The translations under genes and the position numbers were made by a program. Source: a virus. Taken from it: 64,000 nucleotides of DNA. The DNA lies in the IMG/VR virus record IMGVR_UViG_3300025133_000028. One strand, 5' to 3'. Below the pieces are notes generated by a model that was given only the letters and a program-made list of their open reading frames with translations, was not told the origin of the DNA and made no database searches. Shown here piece after piece: positions 14,964 through 15,139 of the stretch (positions within the stretch are counted from its first letter, which is position 1; each line of letters opens with the position of its first letter).

Positions 14964-15139
14964 GCCTCTGTGGTGTAACAGGTTAGCACGCTGATTGTTA
15001 GTATGTGTTGTGGACCAAACAGACTAAGCGAGTTGACTGTAATCAACTCTAACTTAGATTCTTAGTAGGAAAGCACTAATATTTACAGATATTAGTCAGA
15101 AACCATCAGAAGAATTGTGTTCGAGTCCTTTTGGAGGCT
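14964..15139 (+). ncRNA. tRNA-like RNA with 109-nt insertion in the anticodon loop
   Basis: acceptor GCCTCTG/TGGAGGC, D arm GTGT-AACAGGTT-AGCAC, stem CTGAT/ATCAG, GTTCGAGTC loop with a weak T stem. Confidence 0.65.

Follow-up and report, generated by a model that had tools for sequence, protein, structure and literature searches.

A tRNA-derived element with an interrupted anticodon loop in the early region of a 163.7-kb phage genome

Introduction

Does a tRNA-like sequence whose anticodon loop is split by about 100 nucleotides represent a tRNA gene with an intron, an RNA with a role of its own, or what is left of a tRNA gene? The question is raised by an element in the genome of a marine phage known from an IMG/VR record of 163,651 bp that was judged complete, the first 64 kb of which (64,000 nt) form the window analyzed here. 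A preliminary description of this DNA had suggested a minimized or relic group I intron, a protein-spliced intron or a domain displayed on a tRNA scaffold.

All of the large ORFs in the window lie on the plus strand, and its first 17 kb have the makeup of a typical early region, with many small ORFs that match no family and are preceded by recurring promoters of sigma-70 type, the spacer of which is fixed at 16 bp. Among the proteins recognized are an ArdC-like anti-restriction protein, a DNA ligase that is ATP-dependent, NAMPT and a split DnaE-type polymerase, whose relatives, at 48-62% identity, belong to marine uncultured phages. The two polymerase ORFs (genome 88192-90087 and 94178-95986) are about 4 kb apart and have other genes between them. 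Degenerate "pseudo" tRNAs are often flagged by tRNA finders in phage tRNA regions, and T4 makes, beside its tRNAs, the stable species 1 and 2 RNAs, whose role is unknown.

Results

Anatomy and tRNA origin of the element

Table 1. Features of the element and its flanks, in window coordinates.
Feature	Position	Strand	Remarks
tRNA-derived element	14964-15139	+	genome 14960-15135; anticodon loop split by 92-104 nt
Weak terminator-like hairpin: AACGGTT, 9-nt loop, AACCGTT, then T run	14936-14961	+	direct reading; invariant in sister haplotype
Acceptor stem 5' strand GCCTCTG	14964-14970	+	7/7 pairs with 15132-15138 in both haplotypes; ARAGORN drawing
D arm: GTGT, loop AACAGGTTA, GCAC	14973-14989	+	4-bp stem; A14, G18G19 and A21 present
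Anticodon-type stem 5' strand CTGAT and 5' part of Asn-type loop (T-GTT-A)	14991-15000	+	ARAGORN tRNA-Asn GTT
Insert, 104 nt	15001-15104	+	ARAGORN placement; 14996-15104 in the preliminary description
Insert, 92-nt alternative	15003-15094	+	direct repeat TTAGT on both sides (14998-15002, 15092-15096)
Hairpin 1: CTAAG/CTTAG around GAGTTGA-CTGTAA-TCAACTC	15024-15057	+	5+7 bp; 12/12 pairs in both haplotypes, none variable
Promoter-like TTGACT-16-TAGATT	15033-15060	+	weak, probably not an early promoter
Hairpin 2: ACTAATAT-TTACAG-ATATTAGT	15075-15096	+	8/8 pairs in both haplotypes
AGTCAG, alternative partner of CTGATT (14991-14996)	15094-15099	+	6/6 pairs in both haplotypes; overlaps the last 3 nt of hairpin 2
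Fast-changing segment: ATCAG strand, variable region, T-stem 5' strand	15100-15119	+	4/7 of the change events in the element
T arm	15115-15131	+	canonical loop TTCGAGT (15120-15126); T stem 2/5 pairs
Acceptor stem 3' strand TGGAGGC and discriminator T	15132-15139	+	CCA not encoded
Shine-Dalgarno AAGGAG and 45-aa ORF (ATG 15171)	15159-15308	+	32 nt past the element

The acceptor helix GCCTCTG/TGGAGGC includes two G.T pairs among its seven, and CTGAT (14991-14995) can form a 5-bp stem with ATCAG (15105-15109). The sequence is as the preliminary description had it, a tRNA-like RNA with an interrupted anticodon loop in which all seven acceptor pairs, the D arm and the CTGAT/ATCAG stem are present, and its remark on a poorly paired T stem also stands, unlike the paired T stems of the genuine tRNAs of this phage.

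Formal support from tRNA finders is limited to relaxed settings. At its default threshold ARAGORN leaves the element uncalled whether or not inserts are allowed; with inserts allowed, it reports, from 92% of the default threshold downward, a tRNA-Asn(GTT) with a 104-nt insert after position 37, the program placing inserts at 37/38 by design. The Rfam tRNA model RF00005 gives nothing on the element at E<=10. In a canonical tRNA an anticodon stem of 5 bp would carry a loop of 7 nt, the T stem would be paired and the score would exceed the threshold, a combination that the element lacks; it does show acceptor complementarity and, with their invariant bases, a D arm and a T loop in an order and at a spacing beyond chance, as a tRNA-derived sequence would.

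A fortuitous resemblance to tRNA in AT-rich intergenic DNA would agree with the need for a relaxed ARAGORN threshold, with the silence of the Rfam model and with the roughly two matches per genome that shuffled sequence yields, but it is extremely improbable. At 92% of the threshold with inserts allowed, the phage genome gives 17 matches, whereas 20 dinucleotide shuffles average 2.05, and 16 of the 17 lie on the plus strand, that of all the large window ORFs. The 19-mer TGGTGTAACAGGTTAGCAC, which includes the D arm, has exact copies in normal tRNA genes of unrelated metagenome contigs, and at its 5' end the element has 12 consecutive bases in common with the 5' end of a tRNA-Thr(GGT) that the phage itself encodes. 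Past a perfect T loop, at the correct distance, come 7 nt complementary to the start of the element. Because of the excess over shuffles, the shared D-arm string and the identity with tRNA-Thr, we take the derivation to be real and, on these sequence comparisons, regard the tRNA origin of the element as established.

The insert matches no known type of intron

If the insert were a true intron, its removal would leave a working tRNA-Asn, either through a new and very small self-splicing fold or through endonuclease cuts sealed by the Rnl1-like ligase of the phage. The Asn-type loop, split at the classical position 37/38 in the ARAGORN reading, the presence of Rnl1- and Rnl2-like ligases, and the fact that ARAGORN finds no other tRNA-Asn in the phage genome would all suit this explanation. 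We nevertheless consider it very unlikely, given what was found for each route of removal and for the product.

Natural group I introns measure about 200 nt or more. Depending on the choice of borders, the insert is 92-109 nt long, about half the size of the smallest of them, and it offers no catalytic core P3-P9 with a guanosine-binding P7. A cmscan search of 14700-15400 with the complete set of 4227 Rfam families, among which are group I introns and small ribozymes, gave only two noise matches at E<=10, neither of them an intron, and whole-window Rfam scans likewise returned no introns. The Infernal comparison that the preliminary description had proposed gives no support to its minimized or relic group I intron, and the resemblance it had seen between segments of the insert and the R and S (P7) elements has no model support.

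Splicing by proteins fares no better. A script that looked for bulge-helix-bulge motifs (two 3-nt bulges, 4-bp helix) found three perfect ones in the element and 3.0 in shuffles, and none of the three brackets the anticodon stem as its outer helix, so the junction lacks the motif that the suggested protein-spliced intron would call for. Neither an EndA-type splicing endonuclease (PF01974) nor RtcB was found in the phage genome. With the Rnl1-like and Rnl2-like ligases encoded, a capacity for ligation exists; an endonuclease to make the two cuts is not evident in the phage genome. The ATCAG strand, moreover, is longer by 2 nt in the sister haplotype described below.

The product is also unsatisfactory. 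The 5-bp stem leaves a 5-nt loop, in line with the earlier statement that excision gives no clean 7-nt loop, and the 7-nt loop TTGTTAA drawn by ARAGORN requires a 4-bp stem with a G.A mismatch and a missing nucleotide 26. The 92-nt border alternative, with TTAGT at 14998 and 15092, closes by CTGATT/AGTCAG. After in-silico deletion at either border a tRNA-Asn is called only at 97% of the ARAGORN default threshold. Whatever border is chosen, a canonical anticodon arm does not result from excision, and the unpaired T stem would remain. ARAGORN assigns inserts to the classical site by design, and in the sister haplotype the call shifts both the junction and the anticodon that is read.

The hairpins within the insert are genuine pairings yet unusual in no way, as the predicted fold is no better than that of shuffled sequence (z-scores of stability versus shuffles: insert -0.55, whole element -1.07). 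No further copies of the insert were found in IMG/VR, in genome contigs or elsewhere in the phage genome. An origin from a mobile element was considered and rejected, terminal inverted repeats being absent and no second copy existing. A 20-codon ORF at 15003-15065 was judged spurious by direct reading; it has no ribosome-binding site and a residue differs in the sister haplotype.

Distribution and comparison of two haplotypes

In all collections searched, the element is confined to one phage species of 163.7 kb, in which two haplotypes were found. A DNA search of 50,697 phage records gave no match to the element, exact-pattern scans of IMG/VR with its 5' half, its 3' half and hairpin 1 gave zero each, and a genome-contig scan with the hairpin 2 pattern gave zero. 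The split DnaE-type polymerase led to related phages, and in 22 of their genomes BLAST and a covariance model of the element (R1) returned nothing real, the best matches being coding sequence. For the neighboring 152-aa ORF, 5.8 billion proteins yielded no homologue beyond its own 90% cluster, and IMG/VR yielded none. Eight contigs from several marine metagenomes carry an identical 152-aa ORF, and at 99.9-100% identity to the window they are uninformative. The only useful comparison is therefore that with the sister haplotype (contigs L103, L105, L111 and L112), which is about 96% identical overall and keeps the element at the same site.

Within the element the two haplotypes differ by seven change events, or eight variant alignment columns. 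A15058G falls in the -10 element of the promoter-like site, and A15079G turns an A-T pair of hairpin 2 into G.T. The next four events fall in the fast-changing segment: the substitutions C15103A and A15113T, an insertion of GC after 15106 that damages the ATCAG strand and leaves CTGAT with a 4/5 partner containing an internal mismatch, and deletion of T15118, which takes 1 nt off the T-stem strand. The last, G15123A, swaps purines at T-loop position 57 (loop TTCAAGT), and 15124-15157 is unchanged. In the sister haplotype the T stem has three of five pairs, and ARAGORN uses the CTGATT/AGTCAG closure, under which the 20 nt that hold the four events would be the variable region.

There are no compensatory (double) changes between the two haplotypes, and RNAalifold applied to both does not recover the cloverleaf. 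An invariant block of 173 nt (14885-15057) was rejected as a sign of selection; it is the eighth longest invariant stretch in a mosaic alignment of 5.1 kb, and seven are longer. The decay of the element is uneven: three of the five T-stem pairs are lost, against none of the 16 other shell pairs in the acceptor, D and closing stems (Fisher p ~0.008). Loss from the T stem only is not what would be expected of a uniformly decaying pseudogene. The changes between haplotypes lie mostly in loops or linkers, convert A-T to G.T or exchange the T-loop purine 57, whereas the two indels strike stem strands. The uneven decay and the mostly tolerated changes speak for some constraint, although the numbers are small. 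The element is also retained in both haplotypes although nearby cassettes differ.

Two contigs from independent assemblies (L098 and L100) end at 15086-15087, inside hairpin 2 and just past the first differences between the haplotypes; these ends may come from mixed haplotypes in the samples.

Flanking signals and transcription

The terminator-like hairpin lies between the element and the stop (14917) of the 152-aa ORF; having few G-C pairs, it was not flagged by the consensus scan. Downstream, the 45-aa ORF has no family in PHROG. The promoter-like sequence inside the insert was evaluated with a weight matrix built from 28 early promoters of the phage. It scores 2.8 bits, compared with a leave-one-out minimum of 5.7 among the 28 training promoters, and 144 positions in the genome score at least as high (104 on the plus strand and 40 on the minus strand). 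The sister version, with TAGGTT, falls to 1.0 bit. Nor does the site conform to the phage's own early-promoter consensus (a PeSL-like cassette).

The nearest strong promoter upstream of the element is at 14332. The simplest inference is that the element, with no strong promoter of its own, would be co-transcribed with the flanking ORFs by read-through from this early promoter.

Alternatively, the locus could act at the level of DNA, as a regulatory spacer in which the weak terminator and the weak internal promoter serve the 45-aa ORF and the likeness to tRNA is a leftover with no RNA role. The 16-bp spacing of TTGACT and TAGATT is typical of the early promoters of this phage, a hairpin and T run stand just upstream of the element, and another tRNA-like element, at 2466-2602, encloses a consensus early promoter at 2532. 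We consider this improbable, as the internal site scores below every training promoter, is equaled at many genome positions and is weaker still in the sister haplotype, and as it lacks both the A-rich upstream region and the "tag" motif that precede the -10 element of real early promoters.

RNA-related genes of the phage

A TROVE (Ro60/Rsr) ORF of 550 aa lies at genome 66523-68175 (L002:2524-4176) and matches the Pfam model with 37.6 bits (E = 2e-9); it is 2.5 kb past the window end, between phage tRNA-Thr genes. Two RNA ligases are encoded in the window, one at 23168-24157 that is Rnl2-like and bears an OB/tRNA-binding-like domain at its N terminus, the other at 31935-33035 that is like Rnl1 of T4; together they make up a tRNA-repair toolkit. 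A tmRNA at 38557-38853 scores 52.5 bits in Rfam, above the gathering score of 47; this tmRNA and a tRNA at 62964 were found in the "evalue" mode of the Rfam search and missed in its "gathering" mode. The tRNAs for Lys, Arg, Cys, Gly-GCC and Ser (genome 53-69 kb and 114.7 kb) score below the ARAGORN default and have unusual D and T loops, and none of them encodes CCA.

In bacteria, Ro60 binds tRNA-mimicking Y RNAs (PMC4201824), and a few large phages are known to carry TROVE proteins (PMC7824862). One class of Y RNAs, YrlA, is encoded within about 4 kb of rsr on the same strand and has the Ro-binding motif GNCGAAN0-1G near its 5' end (PMC4201824). Like YrlA, the element would be an RNA that does not decode yet has D and T elements resembling those of tRNA, and its genome encodes a TROVE/Ro60-like protein. 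The resemblance ends there: the element and the TROVE ORF are on the same strand but 51 kb apart, the motif GNCGAAN0-1G is absent from the element in both haplotypes, and no YrlA motif was found upstream of the TROVE ORF or in the phage's tRNA-like elements. The topology is also opposite, since YrlA ends in the Ro-binding stem, its acceptor-like stem being closed, whereas the element ends at its acceptor stem.

Other tRNA-shaped sequences

The early region that holds the element contains two further tRNA-shaped sequences whose middles are enlarged. That at 2466-2602 is called by ARAGORN at 92% of the threshold and is 94% conserved in the sister strain. The other, at 15995-16143, combines perfect acceptor and T arms with a large extra domain and has a promoter of its own at 15946; the sister strain lacks it, homology there ending after its first 10 nt, with a different leader and ORF beyond.

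Similar architectures occur in related phages. In the early region of one (L107:253-443, also L108:906-1096 and L109), a tRNA-shaped sequence has a perfect T arm, an 8-bp acceptor stem and a cloverleaf-like fold in which a 112-nt rod-and-branch domain replaces the anticodon loop, and it is strongly folded (MFE -60.6 kcal/mol, z = -3.57, none of 200 shuffles as stable); a model of this element (R2) found no homologue in 23 related genomes. Another relative has a similar tRNA-like RNA with a 53-nt central insert (L106:873-1002). Insert-bearing tRNA-like matches in two complete relatives showed no excess over shuffles. A sequence family of such RNAs was considered and rejected; the architecture recurs, with each case unrelated in sequence.

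In the latter relative, ordinary tRNA-Lys, tRNA-Thr and tRNA-Asn(GTT) genes are scattered among early ORFs beside an HNH gene (L106:9137-11066). The intact tRNA-Asn(GTT) lies about 3 kb downstream of the same GP88-family gene and is unlike the element in sequence; its presence means that early-region tRNA-Asn genes exist in this phage group.

It is conceivable that the three tRNA-shaped sequences of our phage, together with the unrelated ones of L107 and L106, are working RNAs in which a larger domain replaces the anticodon arm, either as part of an RNA-repair and quality-control toolkit with the Ro60/TROVE-like protein, the Rnl1- and Rnl2-like ligases and the tmRNA, or as decoys for host tRNA-cleaving defenses. 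We regard this broader proposal as rather doubtful; if true, it would supply an unpermuted counterpart of the Y-RNA mimics of tRNA.

Discussion

The surviving features of the element, its interruption and its divergence between haplotypes enabled us to propose a tentative model, which we favor while rating it at somewhat less than an even chance: an insertion that is not an intron would have disrupted a gene of tRNA-Asn(GUU) type, leaving an element that does not decode and is carried in an early transcript. In this model, 92-104 bp of unrelated sequence, flanked by the direct repeat TTAGT, would have interrupted the anticodon loop of a phage gene, which would then no longer specify a decoding tRNA. 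Read-through that begins at the early promoter at 14332 would place the element in a polycistronic early RNA, and the insert would stay in that RNA unremoved. The surviving shell, consisting of the acceptor stem, the D arm and the T loop, may at most attract tRNA-end-processing enzymes or act as a structured spacer before the 45-aa ORF.

Several lines of evidence agree with a disrupted gene of this kind. The derivation from a tRNA is supported, the insert fits no known intron type and its deletion gives no clean product. The T stem is poor in both haplotypes, and in the sister haplotype the ATCAG strand has an insertion of 2 nt and the T-stem strand a deletion of 1 nt, with no compensation. 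The fold is no stabler than those of shuffled sequences, no cloverleaf emerges from the two haplotypes, and the element is absent from the 22 related phage genomes and from all collections except in its own species; the intact tRNA-Asn(GTT) of a relative's early region also fits. Set against this are the uneven decay, with losses in the T stem alone, the tolerated positions of most changes, retention in both haplotypes while nearby cassettes differ, and the presence of other tRNA-shaped RNAs and a Ro60-like protein in the same phage. Phages, moreover, rarely keep 250 nt of useless DNA.

The main rival is a functional, non-decoding mimic of tRNA. In such an RNA the shell, with its acceptor stem and D/T elbow, would be a handle for tRNA-binding proteins and the insert of about 100 nt a displayed domain, as the preliminary description had also suggested, acting with the Ro60/TROVE-like, Rnl1-like and Rnl2-like proteins or as a decoy for host defense nucleases that target tRNA. 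The shell is intact save for the T stem and has the canonical G18G19 and T54-T55-C56; its decay is uneven and its changes mostly tolerated. The phage encodes the TROVE protein, both ligases and a tmRNA, cellular TROVE proteins work with a tRNA-like partner and a few large phages carry such proteins (PMC4201824; PMC7824862), and the same early region holds the tRNA-shaped RNAs 2466-2602 and 15995-16143, with a strongly folded example in a relative. We nonetheless consider a mimic rather less likely than a disrupted gene. No compensatory changes accompany the variation and the fold is no better than that of shuffles, a T stem of two or three pairs would weaken the elbow that tRNA-binding proteins read, and the element lacks the distance, motif and topology of a YrlA RNA. 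It is confined to one phage species, and the absence of 15995-16143 from the sister strain suggests that such elements are dispensable. Overall, the decayed pseudo-tRNA that the preliminary description had named as the outcome to contradict it is about as likely as any functional reading.

Among known systems, the tRNA pseudogenes and degenerate tRNA-like genes of phages offer one comparison. As with these, the element is tRNA-derived and of no use for decoding, and it is found in a phage with real tRNAs. What sets it apart is a single large insertion located exactly in the anticodon loop, with the acceptor stem, D arm and T loop preserved. It also lies among the early genes, 38 kb away from the main tRNA cluster. 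With tmRNA it shares the topology of acceptor strand, D-like region, large internal domain, T arm and acceptor strand, but it has no G3.U70 (pair 3-70 is C-G), no tag reading frame and no pseudoknots, and neither the tmRNA mode of ARAGORN nor Rfam calls it, both finding only the tmRNA at 38557-38853. Group I introns of bacterial tRNAs (tRNA-Leu, tRNA-fMet, tRNA-Ile and tRNA-Arg) likewise interrupt the anticodon loop, whereas the insert matches no such model, allows no P3-P9 core to be drawn and has about half the minimum size. Archaeal and eukaryotic tRNA introns share the position 37/38 of the ARAGORN reading; the element differs from them in having no bulge-helix-bulge and in belonging to a bacterial-type phage with Shine-Dalgarno sites and no splicing endonuclease.

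It would be very surprising to find a functioning tRNA intron of 100 nt in a phage, and the evidence is against it. If the element is a relic, it shows how a phage tRNA gene can die by insertion into its anticodon loop, and it serves as a warning that tRNA finders that allow introns will report such relics as intron-bearing tRNAs. If instead it is functional, an unpermuted, tRNA-shaped scaffold RNA would join the few known mimics of tRNA and, as the phage has both RNA ligases and a Ro60-like protein, one could then test directly what the Ro60 proteins of phages bind.
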